A stretch of 64,000 bases of DNA from Arenicellales bacterium. Lineage in GTDB: Bacteria; Pseudomonadota; Gammaproteobacteria; Arenicellales; JAJDZL01. The translations under genes and the position numbers were made by a program. This document shows positions 20,806 through 46,345 of this stretch, piece after piece. The notes below the pieces were generated by a model, which ran no database searches, was not told where the DNA came from, and saw nothing but the letters and a program-made list of their open reading frames with translations. The DNA lies in assembly GCA_951813075.1 (NCBI GenBank), contig OX638343.1, positions 1,335,999 to 1,399,998 of the forward strand, written 5' to 3'. Within the stretch, counting starts at the first letter, position 1, and each line of letters begins with the position of its first letter.

Positions 20806-20812
20806 TTGTTGA

Positions 20813-21457
20813 TTGGAGGAAAGACCGTTGGAAAACGTCACAGTAATCGATCACCCCTTGGTGCAACATAAACTTTCTCTCCTTCGAAATAAGGAGACCG
20901 ATACATTTACATTCCGGTTGCTGTTGCGCGAAGTATCTTTACTGCTCGGCTATGAAGTGACAAGAGATTTGGAGCTTGAATTAAACACTATTGAAACGCC
21001 GCTGGCAGAGATGCAAGCACCATTTTTAGCCGGTAAAAAACTTGCCCTGATCTCAATACTGCGTGCCGGAAACGGACTGGTAGATGGACTTCTCGATTTG
21101 ATTCCCTCAGCACGTGTCGGTCACGTTGGACTGTATCGGGATCCTGACACATTGGTCGCCGTGGAATACTATTTCAAAGTACCCAGTGATTTGAGTGATC
21201 GACCCGTAATTGTTGCAGATCCGATGCTGGCGACCGCAAATACAGCAATAGCAGCCGTTGACAGAATGAAAGATGCCAACGCTAGCAAAATCAAAATGGT
21301 TTGTTTACTCTCTTGTCCAGAAGGCGTTGAGGCATTCACTACCGCCCACCCAGACGTACATGTATATACGGCAGCCATAGACGAAAGACTTAATGATCAT
21401 GGGTATATCATTCCTGGGATCGGGGACGCTGGTGACCGACTCTACGGTACCAAATAA
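20813..21457 (+). CDS. upp: uracil phosphoribosyltransferase
   Basis: [13 protein letters not shown], the PRPP loop [12 protein letters not shown], and the C-terminus [17 protein letters not shown]. The start is TTG, so the exact start is uncertain. Confidence 0.9.
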
Positions 21458-21720
21458 ATCTGATTAAATGACGAATGCGGGAATTGAAAAGAAATGAAAG
21501 CAAATTTATTGGCTCAATTATTCCGAAAATGCGGATCAATCGGAAGTATCGAAGTCAACCAATTCCTGAAGAGGCGCTATCACGATAAAAGTTTCACTTA
21601 CAACGGAATTTCTCTGTCACGTGTGAATCCGTTGTTGATTTTGAATATTGTTGACAGAGTGGGTAATAAACATTCTTAAGGCAATTCATCTAGCAATTAT
21701 GTACAACGGAGGGTATCAAC

Positions 21721-24247: not shown

Positions 24248-25296
24248 TTAGACTCGAACCGCGAGAGCGAGTTCCAATCTGGCTCGCTGGAATCGCACCG
24301 ATTGTGGCCATCATTGTCACTCTGGTGCTGTGCTCGGCGCTGATCCTGTGGGCTGGTGAGCCGGTATTTCAATCGTATTTGTTGCTTGTCGAAGGCGCTC
24401 TAGGGTCAAAGTTCGCAATTTCTGAAACCCTATCGAGGGCAACTCCGCTGATTTTCACCGGTCTCGCAGCTGCTGTGGCATTTCGTGCAAAGTTCTGGAA
24501 CATAGGTGCAGAAGGACAGTTCTACTTTGGTGCCCTGGCGGTAACCTGGATTGGTACGGGTCTATTCTCACTCCCACCAGTGTTGATGATTCCCATACTG
24601 TTTCTGGCCGGTGCAGTTGCCGGTGGCGCGTTACTTTATGTACCGGTAGTGCTTAAAACGCGTCTGAACGTTGACGAAGTCGTTACTACCCTACTTCTCA
24701 ACTTCGTAGTGATATTGCTTGTGAGCTATTTGATTGAAGGACCATGGAAAGACCCGATGTCTTTGGGTTGGCCGCAAGCAGCACCGATTATCGAACAAGG
24801 AGAACTGCCGAAGCTTTTGGAGCGGACTCGTCTCCATCTGGGGTTTGTAGTCGCCATAGTCGCTGCTATCGCAGTGTGGTTTTTGATGAAACTGACAGTG
24901 TGGGGTTACGAAATTCGAGCCGTCGGATTCAATGCGGAAGGAGCATCCTTTGCTGGAATTTCGATCAACAGCACTGTAATCAGGACTGCACTCATCAGTG
25001 GTGGATTAGCTGGTATGGCGGGCGTATCTGAAGTAGCTGGGCTGAAAGGTTACCTGACATTGGATCTATCCCCCGGATTTGGATATGCCGGAATCGCTGT
25101 AGCGATGCTTGCCCAACTTCATCCACTCGGTGTAATCGCTTCGGCTATCTTTCTATCGGCGATTTTTATAGGCGCTGATTCGATGAGCCGATCGAGTGAT
25201 GTTTCAAGTTACATCGCGGATGTGGTAACCGCAGTTTCGTTGTTGCTCGTACTACTCAGCGTCATGCTTGTAAGATTTCGAGTCAGGTGGTCGTGA
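24244..25296 (+). CDS. ABC transporter permease
   Basis: 350 aa, polytopic. GTG start overlapping the ATPase stop. Confidence 0.85.
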   Translation: MIRLEPRERVPIWLAGIAPIVAIIVTLVLCSALILWAGEPVFQSYLLLVEGALGSKFAISETLSRATPLIFTGLAAAVAFRAKFWNIGAEGQFYFGALAVTWIGTGLFSLPPVLMIPILFLAGAVAGGALLYVPVVLKTRLNVDEVVTTLLLNFVVILLVSYLIEGPWKDPMSLGWPQAAPIIEQGELPKLLERTRLHLGFVVAIVAAIAVWFLMKLTVWGYEIRAVGFNAEGASFAGISINSTVIRTALISGGLAGMAGVSEVAGLKGYLTLDLSPGFGYAGIAVAMLAQLHPLGVIASAIFLSAIFIGADSMSRSSDVSSYIADVVTAVSLLLVLLSVMLVRFRVRWS

Positions 25297-25325
25297 ACGA
25301 ATCATGAATTCAGAGCCGGATTGAA

Positions 25326-26273
25326 ATGGCAGATATTTTCGAAATCTTAACGACCCTAGGGTTCTGGGCTGCGACTTTGCGAATCGTCAGCCCGCTAATC
25401 TTCGGAACCTTGGGCGAATTGCTTTGTGAGCGAGCTGGCGTACTGAATCTCGGTATTGAAGGCATTATGACGATTGGTGCGATGGCGGGTTGGATGTGGG
25501 TTTTTCAAGGAGGAGATCTGTGGACAGCGGTTCTTTTTGCTGCGTTTGTTGGTGGCATATTCGGTCTTTTGCACGCGAGCTTTACGGTTTACCTCGGTGT
25601 TTCCCAGCATGTGACAGGAATCGGAATTACTCTGCTTGCTGTCGCACTCAGCTCATACATTTTTCGAATGATGTTACCGGAAGTAACGACACCGCCTAAG
25701 ATTGTTCCTTTTCAAATTTATGAAGTTCCACTTTTACATGAGATTCCATTTGTAGGCCCAGTATTATTTAGCCAAACACCGCTGACGTATCTTGCTCTAT
25801 TGCTGGTTCCTGTCGTGTGGTACTTGCTCTATCGAACACCTATGGGTCTCGCCATTCGCATGGCAGGCGAAAATCCAGTGGCAGTTGAGGCGCAAGGCAT
25901 TGATGTATTGATGGTGCGAACCGCAGCAGTGGTTGCTGGCTCCGCAATGATGGCGATAGGAGGTGCTTTTCTTACCCTGTCGGCATTCGACGCTTTTTAC
26001 TTTGGAATGATTAACGGTCGAGGGTGGATATGTATTGCACTAGTGATATTTGCATCGTGGCGACCTGGTAAAGCACTCATCGCCGCATTGCTATTCGCGG
26101 GATTGGACGCGCTTCAAGTTCGTGCGCAACAAGTTGGAGGAGCGGTCATACCCTACCAGTTTTTCCTGGCACTGCCGTATTTACTCACCATAGCCGCCAT
26201 GGTGGTGATGTCGAGACGCACCGCCTATCCCAAGGCGTTACTCAAACCGTTTCGACGCGGTGATAGAATTTAA
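25326..26273 (+). CDS. ABC transporter permease
   Basis: 315 aa, polytopic; second permease of the BMP-type system. Confidence 0.85.
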   Translation: MADIFEILTTLGFWAATLRIVSPLIFGTLGELLCERAGVLNLGIEGIMTIGAMAGWMWVFQGGDLWTAVLFAAFVGGIFGLLHASFTVYLGVSQHVTGIGITLLAVALSSYIFRMMLPEVTTPPKIVPFQIYEVPLLHEIPFVGPVLFSQTPLTYLALLLVPVVWYLLYRTPMGLAIRMAGENPVAVEAQGIDVLMVRTAAVVAGSAMMAIGGAFLTLSAFDAFYFGMINGRGWICIALVIFASWRPGKALIAALLFAGLDALQVRAQQVGGAVIPYQFFLALPYLLTIAAMVVMSRRTAYPKALLKPFRRGDRI

Positions 26274-26293
26274 ATCCGAATGGAGGAAAATTC

Positions 26294-27571
26294 ATGATCG
26301 ACCTACTACTAAGAAATGCCAATTTATCTGACGGCCGACACGGAATCGACATTGCAATTGACGACGGCCGCATTATTGATGTCGCATTCGGGATCGAAGC
26401 GGTTGCGAACGAAACTCTCGAGTTGGATAACTGGTTAGTCTCACCACCCTTCGTCGATCCTCATTTTCATCTTGACTCTACCCTGGCCGCTGGACGACCT
26501 CGCGTCAACCACAGCGGTACGCTACTTGAAGGCATCGAAATCTGGGGTGATTTGGCGCCGACACTAACCGCGGACGACATCAAAAATAGAGCCCGTGAGC
26601 TTTGTCACTGGTCTATTGCCCGGGGTTGTCTTGCGATTCGTAGCCACATTGACGTTACCAATGACTCACTTCTCGCGGTTGATGCACTTCTTGATCTTCG
26701 AGAAGAAATGGCGCCTTGGATTGATTTGCAATTTGTAGCTTTCCCTCAAAACGGGTTCTACCGATATGCCAATTCACCTCAAAATCTTGTGCGCGCACTT
26801 GATAAAGGAGTGGATGTGGTCGGTGGTATTCCTCACTTTGAGCGAACAATGGCTGATGGTGCAGCCTCCGTAAAGGCACTTTGTGAAATCGCAGCAGAAC
26901 GCGGACTGTTGGTAGACTTACATTGCGACGAAACCGATGATCCGAATTCTCGCCACATTGAGACACTCGCACAGGAAACTCAACGACTGGGTATGCACGG
27001 GCGAGTTACAGGCTCGCATCTGACATCAATGCATTCGATGAACAACTACTACGTGAGCAAGCTACTTCCGTTGATGAAGGAAGCTGAAGTAGCCGCAGTT
27101 GCCAATCCGTTGATCAATATCGTCATTCAAGGCCGTCACGACACCTACCCCAAACGACGTGGGATGACACGTGTCAAGGAAATGGTTCAGATGGAGATTC
27201 CAGTTGCGCTTGGGCATGATTGCGTCATGGACCCTTGGTATGGACTCGGCAGTCATGACATGCTGGAAGTAGCGCATATGGCTGTTCATGTCGGTCAGAT
27301 GACGGGTGTAGACGAAATGAATACCATTTTTGACGGTATTACCAAAACCGCCGCTGAAACTCTTCACTTAGAAAACTATGGAATTGAACCCGGCTGCAAT
27401 GCGGACCTGTTAGTCCTTCAAGCTCGAGATCCCGTAGAAGCGATTCGATTGCGTGCAACGCGGCTTTTTGTGCTGCGTCGCGGTTCAGTTATTGCTCAAT
27501 CAAAACCTGAACAATCCACCTTGACATTCGGTGACAAAGAACAGACGGTCGATTTTCTCGCTAGACAATAA
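26294..27571 (+). CDS. codA: cytosine deaminase
   Basis: PPFVDPHFHLDSTL (HxH metal site) and SGTLLEGIEIW. The protein is colinear with E. coli CodA over its length. Confidence 0.8.
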   Translation: MIDLLLRNANLSDGRHGIDIAIDDGRIIDVAFGIEAVANETLELDNWLVSPPFVDPHFHLDSTLAAGRPRVNHSGTLLEGIEIWGDLAPTLTADDIKNRARELCHWSIARGCLAIRSHIDVTNDSLLAVDALLDLREEMAPWIDLQFVAFPQNGFYRYANSPQNLVRALDKGVDVVGGIPHFERTMADGAASVKALCEIAAERGLLVDLHCDETDDPNSRHIETLAQETQRLGMHGRVTGSHLTSMHSMNNYYVSKLLPLMKEAEVAAVANPLINIVIQGRHDTYPKRRGMTRVKEMVQMEIPVALGHDCVMDPWYGLGSHDMLEVAHMAVHVGQMTGVDEMNTIFDGITKTAAETLHLENYGIEPGCNADLLVLQARDPVEAIRLRATRLFVLRRGSVIAQSKPEQSTLTFGDKEQTVDFLARQ

Positions 27572-27612: not shown

Positions 27613-28103
27613 AATTTTTCGTACGTCTTTGCTCCAGCATCGAAATTCGGAAGTTACCTGATACCCCAATTAGCCGTAATGCTGGATGTCCAGCAGATTT
27701 CTGACACTAGTGAAATTTTCAGCGACGATACTTTCGTTGGTCCGATCTATGCTGGAAATGCGTTGGCCACGGTACGGTCATCTGAATTTGTAAATCTGAT
27801 CACCTTGCACACCACAGCTATGGATGCCACCATCTAACAGGATGGTACTGGAAATGTTGGGGATCTGGCATCATTGGAAAACTCCGGATTGGCTGCATTT
27901 GTCCGTCATGACCTCACCCGAATTGAACGATACGAATCAACTGCTGTGAGGGTCGTCTTATCCGGTGGACGGGGTATGCGAAGCGGCATAAATTCACCAT
28001 GCTTGAGAATGTGGTCGACAAACCAGGAGCAACGGTCGGCACTTCCAGAGCGGTGTTTGATGCAGAATATTTGCCGAATACTAACGGGGACCGGGCAGGA
28101 TGA
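27613..28103 (+). pseudogene. etfA: decayed electron-transfer flavoprotein alpha-subunit (etfA) relic
   Basis: Fragment 1 (frame 1) reads YVFAPASKFGSYLIPQLAVMLDVQQISD...TFVGPIYAGNALATVRSS..., ending at TAA 27835-27837. Fragment 2 reads ...RVVLSGGRGMRSG. After a frameshift near 27990, fragment 3 reads KFTMLENVVDKPGATVGTSRAVFDAEYLPN. The N-terminal roughly 100 aa and the C-terminal FAD-binding tail are missing, and there is no etfB upstream. Confidence 0.75.
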
Positions 28104-28106: not shown

Positions 28107-28991
28107 TTACTCACCTGCAGAGTCAGGTTTTTCAGACTCAGACAGCGCTTTTTGAAATCTTACATCCCGGTAATAACCCAGTGCAATGATCAGTGACTGC
28201 GCAAGAACTATTGCACCGGACAAAGGACGAAATCGGTGTACTTTCGCATCACGGACTATAAAACAAAGACTCGAATTTCGAGCAAGAGGACTAGTCATCA
28301 AGTCGGTAATTGCGAGCACCGGGACGTTGCGGATGTATGCGTCGGAGACTGCATCGACAACCGGTTGCGCATATTCAGCAAAACTAACGGCAATCAACAG
28401 ATCTTTCGCGTTCAATGTGGCAATCTGTTGAGTAAGCATGCCGCCGACCGAATCAAGCAAGTGGCAACGGTACTCGAGTCTGGCCAATCCATAAGCGAGA
28501 TAAGCTGCGATTGGAAAAGCGCGTCGCTGTCCGATGACATAAATATCGCCTGTGCTGTCCATCATACGAATCGCCTCCTGCAACTTGTCTCCATCAATAT
28601 CATCTTTCAAGTGCTGCAGTGCCAGTATCGATGCATCAGCGAATTCTTTAAGAATAGCAGCGGAATCCGTTTCCGCTATTTCTTCCATTTTCTGACGGTG
28701 ATCGTAAATTTGATCACGAAACGTTGGAACCCCTTCAATCAAGCGCAATCTGAAGACTCGTTGCATCTCGGAGAAACCCGAATACCCGAATACTTTGGCC
28801 AGCCGAATCAGCGTGGATGGCTGCACACCAATTTGTTGCGCTATTTCTGCGACAGTGTACAAAGCAAAGCGATTTGGATCTTCAAGGGAGTACTGCGCAA
28901 CTTTTTTTAAATGCGGACTTAATTCCTCAAACTGGTGTTGAATAAGTTCACGCAATCGATCGAAGTCGAGTGGTGCTTCGTTGTCCATCAT
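28107..28991 (-). CDS. MurR/RpiR-family transcriptional regulator (HTH + SIS domain)
   Basis: The N-terminal HTH is YTVAEIAQQIGVQPSTLIRLAKVFGYSGFSEMQ. The C-terminal half is a SIS sugar-phosphate-binding fold. It is transcribed divergently from the operon at 29459. Confidence 0.85.
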   Translation of the reverse strand: MMDNEAPLDFDRLRELIQHQFEELSPHLKKVAQYSLEDPNRFALYTVAEIAQQIGVQPSTLIRLAKVFGYSGFSEMQRVFRLRLIEGVPTFRDQIYDHRQKMEEIAETDSAAILKEFADASILALQHLKDDIDGDKLQEAIRMMDSTGDIYVIGQRRAFPIAAYLAYGLARLEYRCHLLDSVGGMLTQQIATLNAKDLLIAVSFAEYAQPVVDAVSDAYIRNVPVLAITDLMTSPLARNSSLCFIVRDAKVHRFRPLSGAIVLAQSLIIALGYYRDVRFQKALSESEKPDSAGE

Positions 28992-29359
28992 GCAGCGCTC
29001 ATTTACATTTGATCCAAGTTGGATTCTATTCCGGTCATTACCTATCAGGAAGTGACTTCGATATATGGCAAATCAAAAAATTTATTCGTCAAAGTTCAAG
29101 ATTGCTGCTCAGTGTTGTCGCAGCTGAAACCCAATCGCTGTCAAACCCCATTTCTCATTCGCCTTGTCAGACTGTTAATTGTAGTGCAAGTTAAGCGAGT
29201 TCATTTTCCGCAAGTTTGCGCTGTCAAAGTTGAAAACATCAATTCTGATCAAATTGGAAATTCATCATCATCCCACAACGACGAATAGTCAAAATTTTCT
29301 CAGATTCTTCGCGTCTGAACGTGAAGTTCGATCATTTTCATTCAATTTAAAAGGAAGTA

Positions 29360-29412
29360 TTGACAAATACAGAATTTTTATTCTAAAATTTAGAAATAAT
29401 GAAATATTCATT
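29360..29412 (+). promoter_or_regulatory. promoter with two adjacent palindromic operator candidates
   Basis: TTGACA (29360-29365), an 18-nt spacer, then TAAAAT (29384-29389). The palindrome TTCTAAA-a-TTTAGAA (29381-29395) overlaps the -10 element. A second palindrome, AATGAA-ata-TTCATT, lies at 29398-29412. Confidence 0.5.
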
Positions 29413-29458
29413 TTATACTGTGTATAAGAAATAATTATTCAATTTGATGGGAGTGCAG

Positions 29459-30379
29459 ATGACAGTAGCAGTTGGTTTTGCCGGTCTGGGACTTATGGGT
29501 AGTGGAATAGCAAGAAATATTCTTTCTGCCGGTTATTCATTATCCGTCGTTGGCCATAACAAGCGGACCAATCTAGACGATTTGGTCAAGCGCGGGGCGA
29601 GAGAGTTTAACACTTACCGTGACTTGGCGGAGCACTGTGACCTGATCATTCTTTGCGTAACCGGAAGCCCTGAGGTTGAAAGCATTCTTTATCCCAAGGA
29701 TGGGTTGTTGGAAGGCATTCGCGAAGGCAAGATTGTCATTGACTGTTCAACGAGCGAACCTGGTTCGAGCGAACGAATCGCGAGTTCGCTGGAAAAACTG
29801 GGGGCATCTTTAGTTGATGCTCCTCTCGCACGTACGCCGGCCGATGCACAAGCCGGTCGTCTTAACACGATGGTTGGTGCATCAAACGACGATTTTGCGC
29901 GCGTTGAACCTTTGTTGCAAGAATTTTGCGAAAACATATTCCATATGGGACCTGTAGGTTCAGGCCACAAAACCAAACTCATCTACAACTTCATTACCAT
30001 GGGTTATGCCGCAATTATTTCCGAAGCCTTTTGCGCTTGCGCAGCTACCGGAGTCGATTTGAAGAATTTTTCCGATGTAGTGGCTTCAGGTGGAGCCAAC
30101 AGCGGAATATTTCAGCTGATCGCGCCAAAAGCCATAGAATCAGGAGATTGTTCCGGGCTCAACTTCAGTATGGCAAACGCAGCCAAAGACCTTCGCTATT
30201 ACAACCGAATGATGGATTCCATCCCTCTTTCGGGAAATTTGGGAAGAGCAGTACAGCATGCACTAATTCAAGGTCTTAACCTCGGTTACGCTGACGGACT
30301 GGTAGGAGACTTGCTACACGTCCAAGAAAAGCTCAACGGAGTGCAAATCTTGAATCAAGAATCCGGAAACAGCGCTTGA
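29459..30379 (+). CDS. beta-hydroxyacid dehydrogenase (3-hydroxyisobutyrate / tartronate-semialdehyde reductase family)
   Basis: GFAGLGLMGSGIARN Rossmann motif and GSGHKTKLIYNF catalytic-Lys motif. The start is set at ATG 29459, which lies behind a GGGAG. Confidence 0.8.
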   Translation: MTVAVGFAGLGLMGSGIARNILSAGYSLSVVGHNKRTNLDDLVKRGAREFNTYRDLAEHCDLIILCVTGSPEVESILYPKDGLLEGIREGKIVIDCSTSEPGSSERIASSLEKLGASLVDAPLARTPADAQAGRLNTMVGASNDDFARVEPLLQEFCENIFHMGPVGSGHKTKLIYNFITMGYAAIISEAFCACAATGVDLKNFSDVVASGGANSGIFQLIAPKAIESGDCSGLNFSMANAAKDLRYYNRMMDSIPLSGNLGRAVQHALIQGLNLGYADGLVGDLLHVQEKLNGVQILNQESGNSA

Positions 30380-30452
30380 CCTACAGCACTGCCTACTAAT
30401 CACATTGGATAAATTTTAAGAATTGAACCTAGTATCAAAAAGGAGAAAATCG

Positions 30453-31772
30453 ATGGACAATAAATCTGGTAAATCCAACTCAATTGTAAATTCAAAGCGA
30501 CGAACTTTGTTGAAAGGAGCGGGGGTTGTGTCAGCAGGCATTGCGTCCGGATTCATGGGCCCCTGGGTCTACAACCGAGTGTATGCCGCGGCTTCGGATA
30601 AACCAATTCTGATCGGTCTGACCTCCGATGCGTCCGGTCAGTACGCGAACTCTGGTGCGTCAGACCGTCGGGGAATGATGATGGCAGTTGCCGAATTCAA
30701 TGCAAAAGGCGGAGTGCTTGGGAGGCGTGTGGAAACCATACATTTCGATACGGAAACCACTCCAGCAACCGGCAGTCGCGTAGCTGAACGTCTCATTACT
30801 CGCCACGAATGTGCGTTTTTGATCGGCGCAGTCAGCTCAGGTGTTGCCAATGCAATTTCGCAAGTCGCGCAGAAATATGGCACTGTGTATCTCAACACCA
30901 ACTCAAGCTCGCCGACAGAATCTGGCAAGAACTGTCATCGAGTAAAGTTCGTGTGGGACGGAAATGGCACCAACTTCGCTCAAGCTGCAGTAAAAAATGC
31001 GATCGATACATATGGCAAGAAATGGTTGTTGATGACCAACGATTATGTCTGGGGTCACAACACTTCTGCAGCCACCCGTAGCTTGGTGGAGATGTTTGGA
31101 GGGGATATTGTTGACGAAATTCTCGTCCCGCAAGGAACTCGAGACTTCTCGGCCATGTTGCTCAAGGTACAGCAGGCTTCTCCGCAAGTCGTTGCTGCTG
31201 CAGTCGGCGGCGATGATCAAAAGGCGATGCGTCAGCAAGTCTCTCAACTGGGACTCGGACAAAACATGGCATGGATCAACAACCAGCAGGATTGGCCCGA
31301 TGTTTACGGTCTGCCGCTGGACAACCTTTTCGGCGTGTTTGGTACGACCTGGTATTGGAAATTGGACCTCCCCGGAGTCGCAGAGTTTGTAGAACGCTAT
31401 CAGGCTATGTATCCAGACACTCGTATGCGCGTTCCTGGAAACGTTTTCTATAACGGCTATATGGCCACTCGCGAGTTGCTTGGTGCGGTTGAACGGGCTG
31501 GTACCACAAATAACGGAAAGGTTATTATGGAACTGGAAAACCTCAAGGTGTCAGCGAGAGACAGAATGCAGCATCATGATGCATATATGAATCCCAATAC
31601 TCATCAGATGCAGCAGACTATTTATCTGGCCACTGCAAATCAAACTGCACAAGTTCCAGACGATATGTTTACCGTTCTCAGCCAGTCAAGCCCCGAAGAT
31701 GTTCGAGATAATGGCGCGGACATGACATGTAGTTTAGAATCTCTTGCAGATACCCCCACATACGAAATGTAG
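30453..31772 (+). CDS. Leu/Ile/Val-binding-protein-type ABC substrate-binding protein with twin-arginine signal
   Basis: The start is at ATG 30453, behind an AGGAG. The signal is SKRRTLLKGAGVVSAGIASG...VYA|AAS. The mature part is a type I periplasmic binding fold (PILIGLTSDASGQYANSG...). Confidence 0.8.
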   Translation: MDNKSGKSNSIVNSKRRTLLKGAGVVSAGIASGFMGPWVYNRVYAAASDKPILIGLTSDASGQYANSGASDRRGMMMAVAEFNAKGGVLGRRVETIHFDTETTPATGSRVAERLITRHECAFLIGAVSSGVANAISQVAQKYGTVYLNTNSSSPTESGKNCHRVKFVWDGNGTNFAQAAVKNAIDTYGKKWLLMTNDYVWGHNTSAATRSLVEMFGGDIVDEILVPQGTRDFSAMLLKVQQASPQVVAAAVGGDDQKAMRQQVSQLGLGQNMAWINNQQDWPDVYGLPLDNLFGVFGTTWYWKLDLPGVAEFVERYQAMYPDTRMRVPGNVFYNGYMATRELLGAVERAGTTNNGKVIMELENLKVSARDRMQHHDAYMNPNTHQMQQTIYLATANQTAQVPDDMFTVLSQSSPEDVRDNGADMTCSLESLADTPTYEM

Positions 31773-31787
31773 TTTCAATCTTTCAGT

Positions 31788-31828
31788 CTGCCGCTGCGAA
31801 TTTGGTGCGTGGCGGCAGTCGTTTTATT
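31788..31828 (+). terminator. intra-operon hairpin plus T-tract after the binding-protein gene
   Basis: CTGCCGCTGCG (31788-31798) pairs with CGTGGCGGCAG (31808-31818): 11 bp including 2 G-U pairs, with a 9-nt loop. It is followed by TCGTTTTATT. Confidence 0.4.
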
Positions 31829-31857
31829 ATGCAGCATCGAATTAGCTTGAGGTTCGT

Positions 31858-32784
31858 ATGACTGTTTCACACATTTTTCCTCATCTTCTTAACGGATTGA
31901 GTCTCGGATTGCTATTTGCTCTGATCGCACTGGGATTCATGCTAATAGTCGGTGTTATGGAACTGATCAATTTAGCGCATGGTTCTTTGTTCGCGCTCGG
32001 TGCCTATTTTGCATTGACTATCATTGATCCGAGTCTTTCCTGGTTCACAGCTGCTGAAGACTCGTACACCGCATTGCCGTTGATATATCGCTACGGATTG
32101 GCATTAATTCTAGCTCCCTTGCTGGTGGCAGTCGTTGGAATGGGACTTGAGTTGTGCATGCGGCGAACCTACGGTAAAAAAGCGGAATATGGGCTGCTGC
32201 TGACGTTCGGCGCCGCACTTGTCATTGAAGAATCGATCCGACTCACCTGGGGTCCCACCGAACGCTATTTGCAGGTTCCCGAATTCATGACCGGTGCCAT
32301 GCTGTTCGCTGGCTTAATCTATTCTAAATACAAACTGTATGCGGTGGTCTTGTCGATCATCACAATTTTTCTGGTCTGGTTGTTTCTGGAAAGATCACCG
32401 TATGGGGCAATTATCAAAGCCGGTGCCCACGACAGCGAGATGGTACGGGCACTTGGAATTAATTTAACCAAGCTTCGATTGCTTGTGTTTGGGTTTGGAG
32501 CGGGATTGGCCGGGTTTGCTGGAATTGTAATGACACCGATTTGGGGATTAAGGCCGCATGTTGGTATTGACGCTGTGATCCCGGCATTTCTGATTATTGT
32601 GGTAGGTGGCATCGGCAGTTTTTGGGGCGCAGTTATTGGAGGAATATTGGTAGGTCTTTCCGTCGGCATCACAGGAGCGTATGCTTCAGATTGGTCATTG
32701 CTCTCAATGTATTTACTTCTAATCATAGTTGTTACATTTCGTACCAGAGGGTTATTCGGCAAAAAAAGCATTCTGGAGAACTGA
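31858..32784 (+). CDS. branched-chain-amino-acid-type ABC permease (LivH-like)
   Basis: 308 aa, polytopic, with LivH-like composition. Confidence 0.85.
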   Translation: MTVSHIFPHLLNGLSLGLLFALIALGFMLIVGVMELINLAHGSLFALGAYFALTIIDPSLSWFTAAEDSYTALPLIYRYGLALILAPLLVAVVGMGLELCMRRTYGKKAEYGLLLTFGAALVIEESIRLTWGPTERYLQVPEFMTGAMLFAGLIYSKYKLYAVVLSIITIFLVWLFLERSPYGAIIKAGAHDSEMVRALGINLTKLRLLVFGFGAGLAGFAGIVMTPIWGLRPHVGIDAVIPAFLIIVVGGIGSFWGAVIGGILVGLSVGITGAYASDWSLLSMYLLLIIVVTFRTRGLFGKKSILEN

Positions 32785-32787
32785 CGA

Positions 32788-33816
32788 ATGATTGTTCGCA
32801 AGATCGCAGCTCAAGACTGGATTACAAAAGAGATGTTGCTGATATTTGTAATTCTGGTTACGCTTCCGCTTTGGATTGAGCAAATCGGTTTGTACCGATA
32901 TCTGGGTGTCGAAATTGTAATTTGGATGATTTATGGACTCGGCTTCAATTTATTGCTTGGTTATTCCGGTTTGCCGAGTTTTGGACATGGTGCATTTTTC
33001 GGAATCGGAGCATATGCCTTCGGACTTTTCCAGCTGTGGTTTTTCGAAAATTTGTGGTTAGCAATTGTTTTCGCGATTTTCGCATCGTTCATTGCAGGTG
33101 CTGCTGTGGCTTGTTTTGTTTCTCATCGACGAGGAATTTATTTTGCGTTGATGACGATTGCATTCGGACAGATTTTCTGGTTCATCGCAATCAAGTGGCA
33201 TTCGGTCACTGGTGGTGAGGACGGGTTGCTGAATATTCCCCGTGCAGCAGCAGATTTCGGCATATTCGCTTTCGATTTGGATTCGAATACAGAGTTGTTC
33301 TATTTCGTATTCATTGTTTTTGTTTGCATCGTTTTGCTGCTGTGGAGACTGGTCCACTCGAAATTCGGAAAAGTGTTGCAGGCCATTCGACAGAACGAAG
33401 AAAGAGCTCGCTTTATTGGATACAACGTTTGGTTGTTCAAATGGGTGGCATTTACGCTATCCGCGGCAATTGCAGGTTTGGCTGGGGTCTTGTTTTCGAT
33501 GGCACAGCAAGGCGCCTACCCTGACGTGATGGCACTTCATGCTTCTGGAATTATTGTCATGATGACCTTGATTGGAGGTGGATTCGTAAGTTTTTGGGGA
33601 CCGGTAATTGGGGTAACAATCTATTTTCTGGCACGTGATGTTCTTGGAATCATCACGGAAGCCTGGCTGCTATGGTTTGGGCTGGTTTTCGTTCTTACAG
33701 TGTTATTCAAGCCGGAAGGAGTAGCCGGAGCCTGGCAGGAATGGCGCAAGTCCAGAACTTCAACAGTTTCGGGATACCAAACCCTGCTGCAATTTCTATC
33801 GACGAAGAAGAGGTGA
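32788..33816 (+). CDS. branched-chain-amino-acid-type ABC permease (LivM-like)
   Basis: 342 aa, polytopic. It starts 4 nt after the LivH-like stop. Confidence 0.85.
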   Translation: MIVRKIAAQDWITKEMLLIFVILVTLPLWIEQIGLYRYLGVEIVIWMIYGLGFNLLLGYSGLPSFGHGAFFGIGAYAFGLFQLWFFENLWLAIVFAIFASFIAGAAVACFVSHRRGIYFALMTIAFGQIFWFIAIKWHSVTGGEDGLLNIPRAAADFGIFAFDLDSNTELFYFVFIVFVCIVLLLWRLVHSKFGKVLQAIRQNEERARFIGYNVWLFKWVAFTLSAAIAGLAGVLFSMAQQGAYPDVMALHASGIIVMMTLIGGGFVSFWGPVIGVTIYFLARDVLGIITEAWLLWFGLVFVLTVLFKPEGVAGAWQEWRKSRTSTVSGYQTLLQFLSTKKR

Positions 33817-33819
33817 CCT

Positions 33820-34566
33820 TTGGCACCAATATTTAAAGCGAGCGAAGTTCATAAACGATTCGGCGATCACGTAGTGCTCGAGAACATCAATCTCCAGTTC
33901 AAATCTGACTGCTTGAGTGGCATCATGGGACCTAATGGCGCTGGCAAAACAACTTGTTTCAATGTTCTGACTGGCAAATATAAACCCGACCGGGGACGGA
34001 TCGAATTTCAAGGAGAGGATATTACCGGATTAGCACCACACGAAATCGCACGGAAAGGAATTTCTCGATCGTTTCAGACCATGAATCTTTTCAATGAATT
34101 CACAGTGCTGGAAAATATTTTGATTGCACTGAAAGAAGTGCGGGAACATGGTTTTGATTTCATGCATTTGCTAGCACGAGAGAGTGAAGTCGCCGCCAAA
34201 GCAGAGAAAATTCTCTCCCTGGTGGGATTGTCAGGAAAAGAATACCATCGGACGTCCGATTTGGCTTACGGCGACCGCCGCAGTCTCGAAATTGGCGTCG
34301 CCTTAGCGGCTGAACCAAGCTTGCTGTTTCTTGATGAACCGACTTCAGGCTTGGGCGCAAAGGCAACGACCCAACTGCTTGACCTCATACATCGCCTAAA
34401 ACAGAAATACACCATTGTAATGATCGAGCACGACATGAATTTTCTTTTCGAACTCGCAGACTCAATATCGGTCATACATTGGGGTCAAGTAATTGCGTAT
34501 GGAACACCTGACACACTTCGCGACAATAAATGGGTAAAGCAATCAATGCTTGGAGAAGGAGCGTGA
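33820..34566 (+). CDS. ABC ATP-binding protein (LivG-like)
   Basis: GIMGPNGAGKTTCFNVLTG, a LivG-type signature LAYGDRRSLEIGVALA, and LLFLDEPTSGL. TTG start. Confidence 0.85.
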   Translation: MAPIFKASEVHKRFGDHVVLENINLQFKSDCLSGIMGPNGAGKTTCFNVLTGKYKPDRGRIEFQGEDITGLAPHEIARKGISRSFQTMNLFNEFTVLENILIALKEVREHGFDFMHLLARESEVAAKAEKILSLVGLSGKEYHRTSDLAYGDRRSLEIGVALAAEPSLLFLDEPTSGLGAKATTQLLDLIHRLKQKYTIVMIEHDMNFLFELADSISVIHWGQVIAYGTPDTLRDNKWVKQSMLGEGA

Positions 34567-35249
34567 TCCTCGAAATTAACAATATCGATACGTTCTATGG
34601 TGATACTCAAGTGTTGTTTGATGTCTCGATGAACGTGGCAGAGGGTGAAACTGTTGCCTTGCTGGGCCAAAACGGGTCAGGGAGAACGACTTTGCTACGC
34701 TCAATTTTGGGGTTGACGCCGCCTCGAACAGGAAAAATTCAGTTCGATGGAATCGACATTACTGCCAAAATGACTCATGAGATTGCGAGAATGGGAATCG
34801 GCTGGGTGCCAGATGATCGCCGAATTTTCCCCACTCTGACTGTGGCTCGCAACTTGTCGATCGCACGCAAATCAACCAAATATCGATCATGGTCTCTTGG
34901 TGAGATTTTTGAAATCTTTTCTGCTATTGAGTATTTGATGGAGCGGGAATGCGAAAATCTGTCCGGCGGTGAAATGCAGATGGTAGCGATTAGTCGAGCG
35001 TTGCTCGGTGCACCTGGATTGGTATTGTTTGATGAGCCGACTCAAGGACTTGCTCCCAAAATCGTGCAGGATGTGATGATGGTCATTTCACGCCTTAGGG
35101 AAGTCGGAATTTCAGCACTGATTGTGGAACAGAATACATCGACGGCGCTTGAGATCTGCGATCGCGGTTATCTGCTGCACCGAGGAAAAATCGTACACCA
35201 AGCCTCGGCTTCGGATCTGCTGAAGGACGAGCGACTATACACTGACTGA
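34563..35249 (+). CDS. ABC ATP-binding protein (LivF-like) with Walker A Lys replaced by Arg
   Basis: Walker A reads GQNGSGRTT, with an AGA codon where Lys is canonical. The signature LSGGEMQMVAISRAL and Walker B LVLFDEPTQGL are intact. The GTG start overlaps the LivG-like stop (GTGA). Confidence 0.82.
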   Translation: MILEINNIDTFYGDTQVLFDVSMNVAEGETVALLGQNGSGRTTLLRSILGLTPPRTGKIQFDGIDITAKMTHEIARMGIGWVPDDRRIFPTLTVARNLSIARKSTKYRSWSLGEIFEIFSAIEYLMERECENLSGGEMQMVAISRALLGAPGLVLFDEPTQGLAPKIVQDVMMVISRLREVGISALIVEQNTSTALEICDRGYLLHRGKIVHQASASDLLKDERLYTD

Positions 35250-35264
35250 TGGTGAATTGATTTC

Positions 35265-35900
35265 ATGACAGAGGCAATACTGGAAGTTCGCAACATTGTG
35301 AAGATTTATAAACGCGGACTGTTCAACCCAAGCGAGACATTCCGACTCGAAGCCAACTTCACAATTCGGGAATCCAATGTTATCGGTGTCATGGGGCCGA
35401 ATGGGTCTGGGAAAACCACGATTTTTGAATTAATTACCGGTTCAAATCAACCTAGTTCGGGTTCGGTAATGATATTGGGCAAAAACATTCATAACGTGAA
35501 ATACTCCGAGCGAGACCAACTCGCAATGCATTATCACCAATCATACCAAGTACGAAGATTCCGCAGAACCAAGCCTTCTTTCCTGCTATCACCTGCCTCA
35601 CGAAAAGCCCCAATTATTCATCTGTTTGATGAGCCACAATTCAATATTCAAGATGGCTATATCGGATTCATGCTTGATTTTTTCCGCAAGTTGAGAGCAC
35701 AAGACAAGCTGATTTTCGTTTGTCTACACCCAAATGAACTCTATCACGTTGAATTGATGCGAGAAATTTGTGAAAAATTCCTGTTTGTCATGAACGGTAA
35801 AATCTATGAATTTCCGAATTTCGATTCGATGCTTCAAATGCATGAATTTCGAGCGTATCTTGGAAAACTGGCTCCAGACAGCACCAGATCAAATGACTAG
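35265..35900 (+). CDS. third, truncated ABC-type nucleotide-binding protein lacking the LSGGQ signature
   Basis: 211 aa with Walker A GPNGSGKTT and Walker B IIHLFDEP. Only 72 residues separate Walker A Lys50 from Walker B Asp122, versus 116 in the adjacent LivF-like protein. No LSGGQ-like motif is present. Confidence 0.6.
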   Translation: MTEAILEVRNIVKIYKRGLFNPSETFRLEANFTIRESNVIGVMGPNGSGKTTIFELITGSNQPSSGSVMILGKNIHNVKYSERDQLAMHYHQSYQVRRFRRTKPSFLLSPASRKAPIIHLFDEPQFNIQDGYIGFMLDFFRKLRAQDKLIFVCLHPNELYHVELMREICEKFLFVMNGKIYEFPNFDSMLQMHEFRAYLGKLAPDSTRSND

Positions 35901-36633
35901 CAGGACCCGACTCTCAGTATTAACCGGTGCTGCGGGTGCGATCGGACTTGCAGTTGCACGTAGATTCGCCGCTGATGGCCATCGCGTAATCATGATCGAC
36001 ATCAATCGCGACAAATTGAGGGAAGACGCATCAGCAATAGGTGAATGCGCGGTCCCGTTCGTGCTCGACATAAGCGACTTCGCGGCTGTAGAACGTGCAT
36101 GCAAGGAAATTTCTGAACAATACGGAGAAGTCGATACGCTGGTAAACAATGCCGGTATTCTATCCAACGCAAAAACCGAAAATGTTTTGCTCGAAGACTG
36201 GAAGCAAATCATGGCAATCAATCTGGACGGTGCATTTTTTCTGACGCGTTTTTTACTTCCCGCGATGCGAAAGCGCAGATGGGGAAGAATCGTAAATGTG
36301 TGCTCGCTCGCTATGAAAACCGGCGGACTGACGGCGGGGACCGCATATTCGACTTCCAAAGGCGCTCTAGGGGCATTGACATTTTCGCTTGCACGAGAGG
36401 TGGCCCGGGACGGAATTACAGTCAATGCAGTGGCTCCCGCCTATGTCAAAACTCCAATGGTCACCGAGCAGCTTACTAATGAGCAACGTCAAAACATTGT
36501 TGATCAAATCCCAGTCGGTCGATTTTGCGAACCTGATGAAGTTGCACATCTAATAGCGTATTTGGCGTCATCACAAGCGGGATTCATTACTGGAGAGATC
36601 GTCGATATCAACGGCGGGCTGCACATGGATTGA
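35893..36633 (+). CDS. classical SDR oxidoreductase (FabG-like)
   Basis: TGAAGAIGLAVARRF, NNAG and YSTSK (YxxxK). ATG 35893 overlaps the upstream stop by 8 nt. Confidence 0.85.
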   Translation: MTSRTRLSVLTGAAGAIGLAVARRFAADGHRVIMIDINRDKLREDASAIGECAVPFVLDISDFAAVERACKEISEQYGEVDTLVNNAGILSNAKTENVLLEDWKQIMAINLDGAFFLTRFLLPAMRKRRWGRIVNVCSLAMKTGGLTAGTAYSTSKGALGALTFSLAREVARDGITVNAVAPAYVKTPMVTEQLTNEQRQNIVDQIPVGRFCEPDEVAHLIAYLASSQAGFITGEIVDINGGLHMD

Positions 36634-36651
36634 GACTACCGAAAATATACG

Positions 36652-37458
36652 ATGAAATCGCGTAATACAGAAAATTTAACCGAGGTTTCTGAACTCTTCG
36701 GTTTAAACGGAAAAACTGTTTTTATACCGGGAGGGTATGGCGGTCTCGGAAGCGCTATCGCATCAGCAGTTGCATCAGCCGGAGCGACTGTAATCATTGC
36801 TGGACGCCATAGGGAAAAGGCTGCAACTTTTGCAGCCAACTTAGTCACAAGACAGTTGAAGGTCGATAGCGTTTTGATGGACGCTAACAGTGTAGAATCA
36901 ATTAATTATGCTGTTGATGAGATTGCTGATCGATTTGGGCGAATCGATATTCTGATCAATTGTATTGGAATCCACAGGGAGCAGTCTTTGCTAGACGTGA
37001 CGGAGGATGTTTACGATGAAGTCTACCGGGCCAACCTGAAAGCTGCAATGTTTTTGGCGCAGGCAACGGCACGTCACCAAATTGCCGCTGGTAGAGGTGG
37101 ACGGCAAGTTCATTTGGCTTCAGTTCGCTCGCAACTCGGGTTAAGGAACCGCGGATATTCTGCATATTGCAGTAGCAAAGGAGGATTGATGATGCTAATC
37201 AAACAGCACTCGCTTGAACTGGCATCAGAGCAAATCACCGTAAATGGTGTTGCGCCGACTTTTGTTTATACCGAGATGATTCGAAATGTGATGGACAATC
37301 CAGAAATCCATGACGAACTGGTCGCAAGAATTCCACTAGGAAGAATCGCCTCTCCCAGCGATGTAATTGGACCAGTTCTGTTCTTCTGTTCGGATGCTTC
37401 AGGATTTGTGACCGGTCAAATTTTATATGTTGATGGCGGAATTACGGCAAGTCAATGA
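36652..37458 (+). CDS. SDR oxidoreductase (gluconate-5-dehydrogenase/KduD-like)
   Basis: GGYGGLGSAIASAVASAG, NCIG and YCSSK (YxxxK). 268 aa. Confidence 0.82.
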   Translation: MKSRNTENLTEVSELFGLNGKTVFIPGGYGGLGSAIASAVASAGATVIIAGRHREKAATFAANLVTRQLKVDSVLMDANSVESINYAVDEIADRFGRIDILINCIGIHREQSLLDVTEDVYDEVYRANLKAAMFLAQATARHQIAAGRGGRQVHLASVRSQLGLRNRGYSAYCSSKGGLMMLIKQHSLELASEQITVNGVAPTFVYTEMIRNVMDNPEIHDELVARIPLGRIASPSDVIGPVLFFCSDASGFVTGQILYVDGGITASQ

Positions 37459-39485
37459 ATGAGACTATCAAAATCGATGAAACAGCGCGTCTTGAACGCA
37501 CGAGTTCAATACGCGCATTAGCCGTGGACGCGGTTCAACTTGCCAACTCCGGTCATCCTGGAATGCCCATGGGAATGGCTGACATTGCAGAGATTTTGTG
37601 GCGAGAATTCCTAAACCACGATCCAAAAGATCCAAACTGGCCAGATCGTGATCGATTTGTCCTGTCGAACGGGCATGGGTCGATGCTGATCTATGCATTG
37701 TTACATTTAACCGGTTACGACCTGCCTCTGGATGAAATCAAATCTTTCAGAAAGCTCGGTTCCAAAACCCCCGGTCATCCGGAATTTGGAATCACACCTG
37801 GTGTGGAAGTGACAACAGGTCCGCTCGCACAAGGCTTTTCAAGCGCTGTGGGAATGGCGCTTGCGGAAAAAAGACTTGCAACTCAATTCAACCGCGATGA
37901 TTGCACGATTGTGAACCATCATACATACGTGTTCCTTGGCGATGGATGCTTGATGGAAGGACTCTCGCATGAAGCGGCTTCTTTCGCAGCTTACCATCAA
38001 CTCGGTAAATTGATTGCCATTTACGACGAGAATAAGATTTCACTTGATGGTGAAATAAGCGGATGGTTTTTGGATAACACTCCCGCTCGATTTCGTGCTT
38101 ACGGCTGGCATGTGGTGGAAAATGTCGATGGACATAACCCCGATCAAATCAGGTCGGCAATTAGAACCGCACAAAAGCAGGACGGGCGACCTTCTCTAAT
38201 TTGTTGCAATACAGTAATTGGCTATGGTTCTCCGAACAAACAGGGTACTGCACAAGTACATGGATCCCCACTTGGGGAAGTTGAAGTTTCTTTTGTTCGA
38301 GAAGCCCTAGACTGGAAACATCCACCATTTGTCATCCCCCAGTCCGTCTACGATTCATTCAGTTGTGTATCTAAAGGTGCAATGGCACATGAAAGATGGA
38401 ACGAGAAGTTAGATTTCTATTGCCAGAAGTATCCGAAACTTGCTGGCGAATTCAAACGTCGCATCGGTGGGGAATTACCAGACAGTTGGAAACAAACTAC
38501 AGATGAATTCATAAGATCAGTCAGTCGCAGCAATATAAATGCAGCGACTAGAGAGTCTTCGCAGATGGTACTCGAATTCTATGGACCAAGACTTCCAGAG
38601 TTGATCGGTGGATCAGCCGATCTGACAAACTCAAATTTGGTGTTTTGGAGCAAATCAAAACCTCTTGACCGCGACAATCCGGATGGAAACTACATCTACT
38701 TCGGGGTTCGAGAATTCGGAATGACGAGCATAGTTAACGGTTTGTCATTGCACGGCGGATTCATTCCCTACGGAGCTACCTTTTTAGTATTTTCTGAATA
38801 TGCACGCAATGCAGTTCGCATGGCGGCAATAATGGGTATACGTTCAATATTTGTTTACACCCATGATTCAATTGGTCTGGGTGAGGATGGTCCTACACAT
38901 CAAGCTGTAGAACAAGCGGCGACATTGCGTTTGATTCCGAATATGTCGGTTTGGCGTCCGTGCGATGCAACTGAAACTGCTGTTGCGTGGAAAGCTGCAA
39001 TTGAGCGTAAAGATGGGCCGACATGTCTGTTGCTAACGCGTCAAACCGTACCTGCGAATGAAATAGCATGTGACCGCCTGCCTTCAATTGAAAAAGGAGG
39101 GTATGTGATTGCGGAAAGCGATGAAGGCATGGATGCAATAATCATCGCAACTGGATCCGAAGTGCAATTGGCAATCAATGCAATGAAGTCGCTTGCAGAA
39201 AAGAACATTCACTGTCGAGTCGTCTCCTTACCGTCAGTGGATGTGTTTGAGTCGCAAAATCAGGAGTATCAGAATTCGGTGATTCCCCCTCATATGAATC
39301 GTCGAGTTATTATTGAAGCTGGAGTTTCTGCGCTGTGGCATAAGTATGCAGGTCCCTCAGGAATAACGCTCGGTGTCGACAGATTTGGTGAATCAGCGCC
39401 ACCAGAAGACGTTTTCAGGCACTTCAACTTAACCGCAGAAGCTGTCGAAAAAGCCGTACTGGATTTGTATTCATGCAGTCAGTAA
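37455..39485 (+). CDS. tkt: transketolase, accessory paralogue
   Basis: 676 aa and full length. It has [21 protein letters not shown] and [15 protein letters not shown]. The start overlaps the SDR stop (ATGA). Confidence 0.92.
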   Translation: MNETIKIDETARLERTSSIRALAVDAVQLANSGHPGMPMGMADIAEILWREFLNHDPKDPNWPDRDRFVLSNGHGSMLIYALLHLTGYDLPLDEIKSFRKLGSKTPGHPEFGITPGVEVTTGPLAQGFSSAVGMALAEKRLATQFNRDDCTIVNHHTYVFLGDGCLMEGLSHEAASFAAYHQLGKLIAIYDENKISLDGEISGWFLDNTPARFRAYGWHVVENVDGHNPDQIRSAIRTAQKQDGRPSLICCNTVIGYGSPNKQGTAQVHGSPLGEVEVSFVREALDWKHPPFVIPQSVYDSFSCVSKGAMAHERWNEKLDFYCQKYPKLAGEFKRRIGGELPDSWKQTTDEFIRSVSRSNINAATRESSQMVLEFYGPRLPELIGGSADLTNSNLVFWSKSKPLDRDNPDGNYIYFGVREFGMTSIVNGLSLHGGFIPYGATFLVFSEYARNAVRMAAIMGIRSIFVYTHDSIGLGEDGPTHQAVEQAATLRLIPNMSVWRPCDATETAVAWKAAIERKDGPTCLLLTRQTVPANEIACDRLPSIEKGGYVIAESDEGMDAIIIATGSEVQLAINAMKSLAEKNIHCRVVSLPSVDVFESQNQEYQNSVIPPHMNRRVIIEAGVSALWHKYAGPSGITLGVDRFGESAPPEDVFRHFNLTAEAVEKAVLDLYSCSQ

Positions 39486-44864: not shown

Positions 44865-44914
44865 ATCGTATTTTCTCCATTCCTTACATGCGTAAATGCG
44901 CTATTGAAATTAGT

Positions 44915-46339: not shown

Positions 46340-46345
46340 TTCCTA

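Follow-up and report, generated by a model that had tools for sequence, protein, structure and literature searches.

Gene content of the operon and its regulator

We analysed a 64,000-nt window from the genome of an Arenicellales bacterium (GenBank assembly GCA_951813075.1, contig OX638343.1), and all coordinates below are positions within this window unless another locus is named. At 28107-39485 it holds a regulator gene and an operon ending in tkt2, a gene for a second transketolase. It is a horizontally mobile operon of wide occurrence that has so far gone uncharacterised; its genes would serve the uptake and oxidation of what is probably a small acidic derivative of a sugar. Genes were called from a listing of open reading frames (ORFs) together with Pfam and NCBIfam scans, which bear out the layout described in a first-pass annotation made from the DNA letters alone: a divergent, minus-strand RpiR gene faces ten tightly packed co-directional genes, which are separated by gaps of 3-85 nt and overlap in three pairs, nbd1/nbd2, nbd3/sdr1 and sdr2/tkt2, the last by 4 nt (ATGA).

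The regulator gene, rpiR (28107-28991, minus strand), encodes an RpiR-family protein with HTH_6 (PF01418, 44.9 bits) and SIS (PF01380, 57.6 bits) matches in Pfam. All ten operon genes lie on the plus strand. The first encodes a beta-hydroxyacid dehydrogenase (beta-HAD; ORF 29444-30379), whose start we place at 29459, a conserved ATG with a GGGAG ribosome-binding site. It is followed by the components of a HAAT-type ABC importer, namely a Tat-signal Peripla_BP_6 binding protein with the twin-arginine motif KRRTLLKG (30423/30453-31772), two BPD_transp_2 permeases (31858-32784 and 32788-33816), a LivG/UrtD-like ATPase (nbd1, 33820-34566), a LivF/UrtE-like ATPase (nbd2, 34530-35249) and a truncated ABC-like ATPase of 211 residues (nbd3, 35265-35900) that matches the N-terminal half of ABC_tran only. 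Two short-chain dehydrogenases/reductases (SDRs) come next: sdr1 (~35893-36633, its start inferred from orthologue lengths within an ORF that opens at 35806) is like FabG and acetoacetyl-CoA reductase, and sdr2 (36652-37458) resembles gluconate 5-dehydrogenase and KduD in the domain scans and in its PDB match. The last gene, tkt2 (37455-39485), encodes a 676-residue transketolase of the TktA type. Ahead of the first gene, a candidate promoter and operator (29360-29399, plus strand) comprises a sigma-70-like TTGACA-18-TAAAAT (11/12 matches) overlapped by an AT-rich palindrome (29378-29399), and ATATTC-type motifs of this region are partly kept in three other Arenicellales genomes (L001-L003).

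A kinase, isomerase, aldolase or hydrolase was found neither within the operon, as had been stated at first pass, nor in those further ORFs of the window that the scans covered. Outside the operon, the minus strand carries a canonical housekeeping tkt1-gap-pgk-pyk-fba cluster (43839-50621, with tkt1 at 48615-50621 and an fba of the class I aldolase type), which shows that tkt2 is a second copy.

The transketolase embedded in the operon

In tblastx comparisons of the window with L001-L003, similarity was confined to an unstranded block reaching from 28084 to ~39600 (approximate limits), that is, from rpiR through tkt2. The flanks around this shared region are unrelated, and therefore the 11.5-kb block moves as a unit between genomes; it occurs in at least two genomic contexts, with tkt2 attached each time. 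No convincing boundary repeats or terminator were found around the block. The 4-nt overlap of sdr2 and tkt2 recurs in L002, L003, L088 and L089, and through it the translation of tkt2 is predicted to be coupled to that of sdr2. The gene is under purifying selection, with dN/dS of 0.11-0.12 at dS of 0.5-0.7, much like the neighbouring enzymes (the nbd2 dN/dS against L002 was disregarded as a codon-alignment artefact). The transketolase paralogue noted at first pass is thus a true second copy that is coupled to sdr2, under purifying selection and co-transferred with the operon.

The transketolase candidates of the L002 and L003 genomes (P0161 and P0159) are only 71% identical to tkt1, as against 84-94% for the operon proteins, and this difference hints at exchange of the block between fairly distant Arenicellales. 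On a near-identical contig, L088, a 58-residue fragment with an electron transfer flavoprotein match (PF01012; L088:210-386) lies between the cytosine deaminase gene and rpiR, at the equivalent of window positions ~27660-27840, and may be a remnant that marks the insertion site of the block.

By every sequence test applied, tkt2 is predicted to be a canonical TktA-type transketolase capable of ketol transfer. Its TIGR00232 score of 913 bits exceeds the cut-off of 682, and it matches the PDB entry for E. coli TktA with E = 1e-259. In the alignment, H26, H66, H100, D155, N185, H261, R358, S385, E411, H461, D469, H473 and R520 of TktA are identical in both tkt2 and tkt1. These are catalytic, thiamine diphosphate/metal and substrate-phosphate residues of TktA. 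PMC12016104 is one source for these roles. The first-pass annotation had located the substrate-phosphate ligands in the motifs ATRESSQ, GGSADL, THDSIG and LTRQ; all four are present and the ligands R358, S385, H461 and R520 are kept, but S385 is the Ser of 'TNS', four residues past GGSADL, and not the Ser inside that motif. The acceptor of transketolase, glyceraldehyde-3-phosphate, occupies the same phosphate pocket. Because this acceptor needs those ligands anyway, their retention in tkt2 is uninformative either way.

The housekeeping tkt1 lies ~9 kb from tkt2 and is 65% identical to it. The tkt2 clade comprises only nine protein clusters (88-100% identity); its next relative, P0130, shares 72% identity and stands in a housekeeping tkt-gap-pgk context, and all others are at most 66% identical. 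In a neighbour-joining tree, tkt2 pairs with P0130 and not with tkt1; the genes nearest to it are housekeeping tkt genes of Gammaproteobacteria. Given this placement and the 65% identity, a recent duplication of tkt1 was rejected as its origin. Exact-match look-ups of tkt2 and of P0003 returned no record.

At 14 positions where at least 90% of 113 other transketolases agree, the tkt2 clade has a fixed replacement; four of these replacements (I189L, G384N, T388V and S519T) lie near the substrate channel and are mild save for G384N. Comparably isolated housekeeping lineages carry 3-20 such replacements. The count for tkt2 falls within this control range, and therefore gives no evidence of a new specificity. 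Neofunctionalisation of the active site was accordingly set aside as unsupported, no radical change being seen there.

Spread, variants and likely substrate of the module

Related genome loci were collected with the binding protein as query, the best 80 of 574 species-representative hits being fetched, and later counts refer to 83 or 84 loci. The order regulator, binding protein to nbd3, then SDR recurs in the 80 fetched loci, and the gene arrangement is therefore not due to chance. The constant core consists of the regulator, the binding protein, two permeases, three ATPases and an SDR2-type enzyme. The binding protein has more than 3000 clusters of close homologues and is encoded in at least 574 species-level genomes, many of them from sponge and marine symbionts. 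Its sequence identity between Gamma-, Alpha- and Deltaproteobacteria and Binatia is 70-94%. Of the enzymes, sdr2 shows the most constant link to the transporter (64/84 loci), and nbd3 is present in 73/84.

About 30 loci, including that of the window, are of type A, in which beta-HAD and SDR1 are added to the core. A PfkB+DUF2090 fusion, an IolC-type kinase/aldolase scoring above the NF047869 cut-off, was found in 11 of these ~30. It directly follows sdr2 in L081, which is the slot of tkt2 in the window, and stands beside rpiR in 10 further loci, mostly co-directional and downstream. The IolC kinase and the IolJ/DUF2090 aldolase are absent from the window, and no IolC/DUF2090 protein encoded elsewhere in this genome appeared among the best 120 matches, a set that more distant copies would not enter. 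The first-pass annotation had noted the lack of a kinase in this operon. The genome-neighbourhood survey shows the fusion in 11 type-A loci, and the lack is therefore specific to lineage and not a property of the pathway. Literature searches combining DUF2090/RpiR and Arenicellales/sponge/inositol found nothing relevant.

A further variant, seen in Desulfobacterales (L066 and L073), has an aldo-keto reductase in place of beta-HAD, an XRE-cupin regulator in place of RpiR, and a TAL_FSA protein, of the transaldolase (TAL) family, after sdr2. Scanning metagenomes with this protein revealed ~10 further SDR1-SDR2-TAL loci, some of which consist of the aldo-keto reductase, a regulator, two SDRs and the TAL-family protein, with no transporter or kinase. 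To this extent the kinase-free cassette envisaged at first pass found support: a reductase, two SDRs and a C-C bond enzyme recur together in other lineages, with a TAL-family protein. With 123 bits, this protein stays below the transaldolase cut-off (367). Of the TalB residues, the Schiff-base K132 and the phosphate-binding R181 and R228 are retained, and Gln takes the place of E96, as in fructose-6-phosphate aldolase.

The divergent TAL_FSA family to which it belongs (L066:8623-9717, L073:10895-12058, L093-L172) has at least 566 hits, from sediment and soil metagenomes. More distant TAL relatives adjoin LacI regulators, APC-type permeases, aldehyde dehydrogenase (L168) or transketolase (L156), and not pentose-phosphate clusters. 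From these contexts, the family may be one of catabolic transaldolases or aldolases.

In type B (~32 loci), a small cupin and a GFO/IDH/MocA dehydrogenase replace beta-HAD and SDR1. These loci often add an IlvD/EDD dehydratase (1032 bits on the L-arabinonate dehydratase equivalog, cut-off 882), an HpcH/HpaI aldolase and an aldehyde dehydrogenase like succinate semialdehyde dehydrogenase, which together would allow aldonates taken up by the same transporter to be degraded without phosphorylation, much as in the Dahms pathway. In a Rhodospirillales locus (L083:688-5694), a cluster of LarA homologues (Lar_N, AIRC, Ni_insertion and a HupE/UreJ nickel transporter) adjoins the IolC-type kinase/aldolase and the operon, and this points to an enzyme with a nickel-pincer cofactor that would racemise or epimerise 2-hydroxyacids of the same class.

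Two components of the module are unusual in their own right. The SIS loop of the regulator near residue 155 (IYVIGQRRAFPIAAY) aligns as G-Q-R-R-A-F-P with G-L-G-[SG]-S of E. coli YebK/MurR; the canonical G-x-G-x-S loop is replaced by [GA]-x-R-R-x-x-P, in which the Arg-Arg pair is at least 90% conserved across 73 orthologues of types A and B. This loop suggests a single anionic class of effector, and the protein may stand for a subtype of RpiR regulators with its own mode of effector binding. Since kinases are lacking in type B, the effector may well be unphosphorylated.

The other oddity is the third ATPase. The first-pass annotation had counted three nucleotide-binding domains; two are normal ATPases, but nbd3 is truncated, aligns to nbd2 over its first ~75 residues only and has no helical subdomain and no LSGGQ. 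Its Walker A motif, HYHQSYQVR, HLFDEPQFN..DGY and C.HPNE are invariant in 71 orthologues, and its conservation exceeds that of most operon enzymes. Candidate roles are those of an accessory ATPase, a regulator or even a kinase. A PADLOC scan of nbd3 gave only generic P-loop noise, and the single-sequence structure prediction was unusable (pLDDT 36.5).

Several features of the proteins bear on the imported compound. The closest solved relative of the binding protein is 3I09 (E = 5e-30), which was co-crystallised with acetoacetate (bioRxiv 10.1101/251942). The transport components stay under the Liv and Urt equivalog cut-offs (UrtA 104 vs 493, LivJ-type 58 vs 477, UrtB 172 vs 250, UrtD 210 vs 304). 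Together with the Arg-Arg loop of the 73 regulators, these results support the earlier proposal of an anionic substrate, which we take to be probable, over an ordinary amino acid.

As for the enzymes, beta-HAD matches tartronate-semialdehyde reductase models best and has the substrate loop DAPLART, yet it stays below the equivalog cut-offs for tartronate-semialdehyde reductase (161 vs 397), sulfolactaldehyde reductase (136 vs 348) and L-threonate dehydrogenase (124 vs 350). The best PDB match of SDR2 is a gluconate 5-dehydrogenase (5u9p, E = 5e-43), and its scores lie below the cut-offs of NF006070 for that activity (185 vs 279) and of the glucose 1-dehydrogenase subfamily (197 vs 215). Taking all these clues together, we consider a sugar acid, whether aldonate, keto-aldonate or uronate, the most likely substrate. 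'Funnel' clusters that include SDR enzymes and handle C4-C6 sugar acids have been described in marine Rhodobacterales (PMC12994016).

Proposed pathway and competing explanations

We propose that the operon is controlled by an RpiR-type repressor with an Arg-Arg effector loop, and that its Liv/Urt-type ABC system would import a small carboxylated polyhydroxy compound. Three NAD(P) oxidoreductases, beta-HAD, SDR1 and SDR2, would then process this compound, in an order that we infer along with the class of substrate, to a fructose-like keto-acid with a CH2OH-CO-CHOH- head and a carboxylate tail, for example a 5-keto-aldonate. The enzyme that breaks the chain would differ between lineages: an IolC-type kinase/aldolase fusion, a divergent transaldolase-family protein, none encoded locally or, here, a captured transketolase of housekeeping type. 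In the window, tkt2 would move the C2 ketol of the unphosphorylated keto-acid to glyceraldehyde-3-phosphate, giving xylulose-5-phosphate and an acid semialdehyde, which beta-HAD would reduce or general metabolism would take up. We put the probability of this proposal, with its lineage-variable cleavage step and ketol transfer by the captured tkt2, at roughly 0.4. Direct cleavage of the unphosphorylated keto-acid by tkt2 is plausible, at odds somewhat short of even, and we rank it first because kinase-free cassettes of a reductase, two SDRs and a TAL-family protein or transketolase recur. Where a kinase is present, it is always joined to an aldolase that would need a phosphorylated substrate; sulfo-EMP versus sulfo-TAL and sulfo-TK follow the same logic (PMC9594981).

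Several known systems share parts of this scheme. In the sulfo-TK pathway (SqvB, SqvD, SqwGH, SqwI and SqwF; PMC9594981), a cluster-encoded transketolase likewise acts without a kinase, on an unphosphorylated anionic fructose-like ketose with glyceraldehyde-3-phosphate as acceptor, and sister pathways treat the same ketose with a kinase plus aldolase or with a transaldolase. Our operon differs in having no sulfoquinovosidase, isomerase, SqwI, SqwF or exporter, in the three oxidoreductases that stand in place of the isomerase, in a single-chain tkt2 that passes TIGR00232, and in a transporter and regulator of other families. The chemistry is closest to the formation of L-tartrate from 5-keto-D-gluconate, in which E. 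coli-type transketolases are reported to break the C4-C5 bond of the 5-keto-aldonate and so release a C4 acid aldehyde (PMC13527115, PMC12016104); upstream of this step, dehydrogenases and reductases interconvert keto-gulonate, idonate and 5-keto-gluconate, and the semialdehyde is there oxidised. That cleavage, however, is described as a weak side activity of E. coli-type enzymes and in engineered or plant biosynthesis; no bacterial catabolic operon dedicated to it is known, and the improved transketolase variant that was reported lost R358, H461 and R520.

The PfkB+DUF2090 fusion in the 11 orthologous loci resembles the IolC/IolJ step of myo-inositol catabolism (NF047869), whose substrate is also a fructose-like keto-acid with a carboxylate tail, but the annotated loci have no IolG, IolE, IolD and IolB set, the window has no IolC, and the transporter is of another type. 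Pairs of dehydrogenases also epimerise aldonates, L-idonate via 5-keto-gluconate, L-gulonate via fructuronate and L-gluconate via a 5-keto intermediate. The case of 5-keto-L-gluconate is described in PMC12632266. These routes resemble the operon in the use of a dehydrogenase pair on an imported sugar acid by way of a 5-keto intermediate, and SDR2 is like gluconate 5-dehydrogenase; unlike the operon, they end in a dehydratase or kinase of the same cluster. The type-B relatives, with their GFO/IDH/MocA and SDR dehydrogenases, L-arabinonate-dehydratase equivalog, HpcH/HpaI aldolase and aldehyde dehydrogenase, recall the Dahms and Weimberg pentonate pathways, whereas the type-A operon of the window has no dehydratase, aldolase or aldehyde dehydrogenase. 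In its Peripla_BP_6 protein, two BPD_transp_2 permeases and pair of LivG/LivF-type ATPases, the importer has the composition of HAAT systems (LivJHMGF, UrtABCDE), but it is far below the Liv/Urt equivalogs, adds an invariant truncated ATPase and is accompanied by sugar-acid enzymes and not by nitrogen metabolism. On these comparisons, the block reads as a putative catabolic operon with an embedded transketolase that falls outside sulfoglycolysis, inositol catabolism and the curated sugar-enzyme and Liv/Urt equivalogs. No component of the module reaches a curated functional assignment, and therefore a common marine carbon source has probably been missed in annotation.

A number of findings weigh against ketol transfer from a pathway-specific keto-acid. 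The reported activity of wild-type transketolase on 5-keto-gluconate is low, and mutation of R358, H461 and R520, all of which tkt2 keeps, raised it (PMC12016104). It passes the canonical transketolase model, groups with P0130 of the tkt-gap-pgk context, and has no more lineage-specific replacements than housekeeping lineages show. A transketolase adjoins the module in just three of the 83 related loci (L001-L003), all from one narrow Arenicellales lineage. In L001, a related Arenicellales metagenome-assembled genome, tkt2 (region L001:17018-20811) is broken near residue 87 by an inserted IS1380-family transposase gene (L001:17527-19017, minus strand), and the operon genes other than tkt2 give full-length protein matches at 83-94%. 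With this narrow occurrence and the disrupted copy, the earlier view of a dedicated tkt2 as a conserved part of the system does not hold. Most type-A loci encode no C-C bond enzyme, and many end directly after sdr2. In addition, beta-HAD is 75% identical between transketolase and kinase/aldolase variants; the two would release aldehydes of different length, and beta-HAD may therefore not act after cleavage. The scheme of the first-pass annotation, in which the SDRs oxidise the substrate, tkt2 cleaves it and beta-HAD reduces the remainder, thus stands in part: kinase-free cassettes and the 5-keto-gluconate precedent speak for it, and the canonical nature and rarity of tkt2, along with the similarity of beta-HAD across variants, speak against it.

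The same findings feed an alternative in which tkt2 merely boosts the pentose-phosphate pathway: the oxidoreductases would yield D-gluconate, a pentulose or some other common metabolite, to be phosphorylated by a kinase encoded elsewhere, and tkt2 would work only on standard sugar phosphates under RpiR control. RpiR-family regulators commonly govern pentose-phosphate and Entner-Doudoroff genes, the recruited transketolase and TAL are the two transferases of the pentose-phosphate pathway, and tkt2 has a canonical sequence with every phosphate ligand, a housekeeping nearest relative, no excess of lineage-specific change and a dispensable copy in L001. Most orthologous modules stop after sdr2 with no C-C bond enzyme, so that their product must be able to enter general metabolism. 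On the other hand, the TAL partner is divergent and its wider family adjoins LacI regulators, permeases and aldehyde dehydrogenase instead of pentose-phosphate genes; kinase-free cassettes of aldo-keto reductase, two SDRs and TAL exist even without a transporter; the housekeeping tkt1 is already present 9 kb away; and no sugar kinase occurs among the scanned window ORFs. We regard this explanation as possible but doubtful. That a duplicated or transferred housekeeping gene simply hitch-hikes behind the operon with no functional link would fit the narrow distribution, the insertion in L001 and the canonical sequence of tkt2, but it is hard to square with the retention of the 4-nt sdr2 overlap in L002, L003, L088 and L089, with dN/dS of ~0.11 over dS of 0.5-0.7, and with the attachment of tkt2 to the block in each of at least two contexts, and we consider it unlikely.

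A sulfonate, either a sulfosugar product or 2,3-dihydroxypropane-1-sulfonate, would make beta-HAD a sulfolactaldehyde reductase and tkt2 a sulfo-TK enzyme. The alternation of kinase/aldolase, TAL and transketolase does mirror sulfo-EMP, sulfo-TAL and sulfo-TK (PMC9594981), the type-B enzymes could be mapped onto the sulfo-Entner-Doudoroff route, and beta-HAD shares the x-R-T loop of YihU (DAPLART vs DVPVGRT), where GarR has SGG. However, homologues of E. coli YihO, YihP, YihQ, YihR, YihS, YihT and YihV are absent from the 83 loci and the window; no SqvB, SqvD, SqwI or SqwF-type protein or sulfonate exporter occurs among the annotated neighbours; and the operon itself has no SqwF alcohol dehydrogenase, sulfoacetaldehyde dehydrogenase or exporter, nor did Pfam scans of it reveal a FucI-like protein. 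The sulfonate ligands of YihU, N174 and S178 (PMC8006165), are replaced by Tyr and Thr in beta-HAD, which also falls short of the sulfolactaldehyde reductase model, and the type-B dehydratase passes the L-arabinonate dehydratase equivalog. Membership in sulfoglycolysis was rejected for want of any yih homologue save beta-HAD and for the lost YihU ligands, and the sulfonate substrate that the first-pass annotation had also allowed is very unlikely.

Only a slight chance is left to an ordinary Liv/Urt-type importer of amino acids, amides or urea beside unrelated dehydrogenases. Urt and Liv transport components are indeed the closest hidden Markov model families, and source annotations name the binding protein 'branched-chain amino acid transport', but the scores are far under the equivalog cut-offs (for example UrtA, 104 vs 493), in 60-70 of the 84 loci the transporter is accompanied by an RpiR regulator and enzymes of sugar type, and it has no amidase, urease or transaminase as a linked gene. 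Equally remote is import of a compound that is already phosphorylated, such as a polyol phosphate or phospho-aldonate, so that transketolase, TAL, the SIS regulator and the 6PGDH-fold beta-HAD would all see ordinary phosphate esters. This would explain kinase-free cassettes whose transketolase and TAL keep their phosphate ligands and would suit a SIS-domain regulator; yet the SIS phosphate loop is replaced by Arg-Arg, the kinase/aldolase variant would be redundant, and a small carboxylate was the ligand in 3I09, the closest binding protein of solved structure. We also know of no precedent for the import of phosphate esters by the HAAT family.

If the transketolase, TAL and kinase-aldolase variants do share one carboxylated ketose, as our preferred pathway supposes, then sugar acids too would follow the logic of sulfoglycolysis, in which an anionic tail directs the cleavage of a C-C bond with no kinase involved, and the weak 5-keto-gluconate activity of transketolase that is now engineered for tartrate production would have a natural role. 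In its fullest form, the module would be a mobile carboxylate counterpart of sulfoglycolysis, in which a keto-sugar-acid, as an analogue of fructose-6-phosphate, is split by a transketolase, a TAL/FSA-like enzyme or a kinase-aldolase, with an Arg-Arg SIS sensor and a Liv-type importer that needs a signature-less third ATPase. We offer this wider picture tentatively, and it is on balance doubtful.

Elsewhere in the window, the genes upstream of the block (18357-27571) encode a GTP-cyclohydrolase-II-like protein, a uracil phosphoribosyltransferase, a BMP-family ABC importer resembling 'putative B6' models and a cytosine deaminase. This looks like a pyrimidine/nucleoside salvage cluster that is apparently unrelated to the operon. 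On the minus strand at 3316-4488, a single ORF joins a fatty-acid desaturase match (residues 10-214) to an ISL3 transposase fragment (residues 277-385), and an insertion sequence remnant seems to have truncated this gene or become fused to it.

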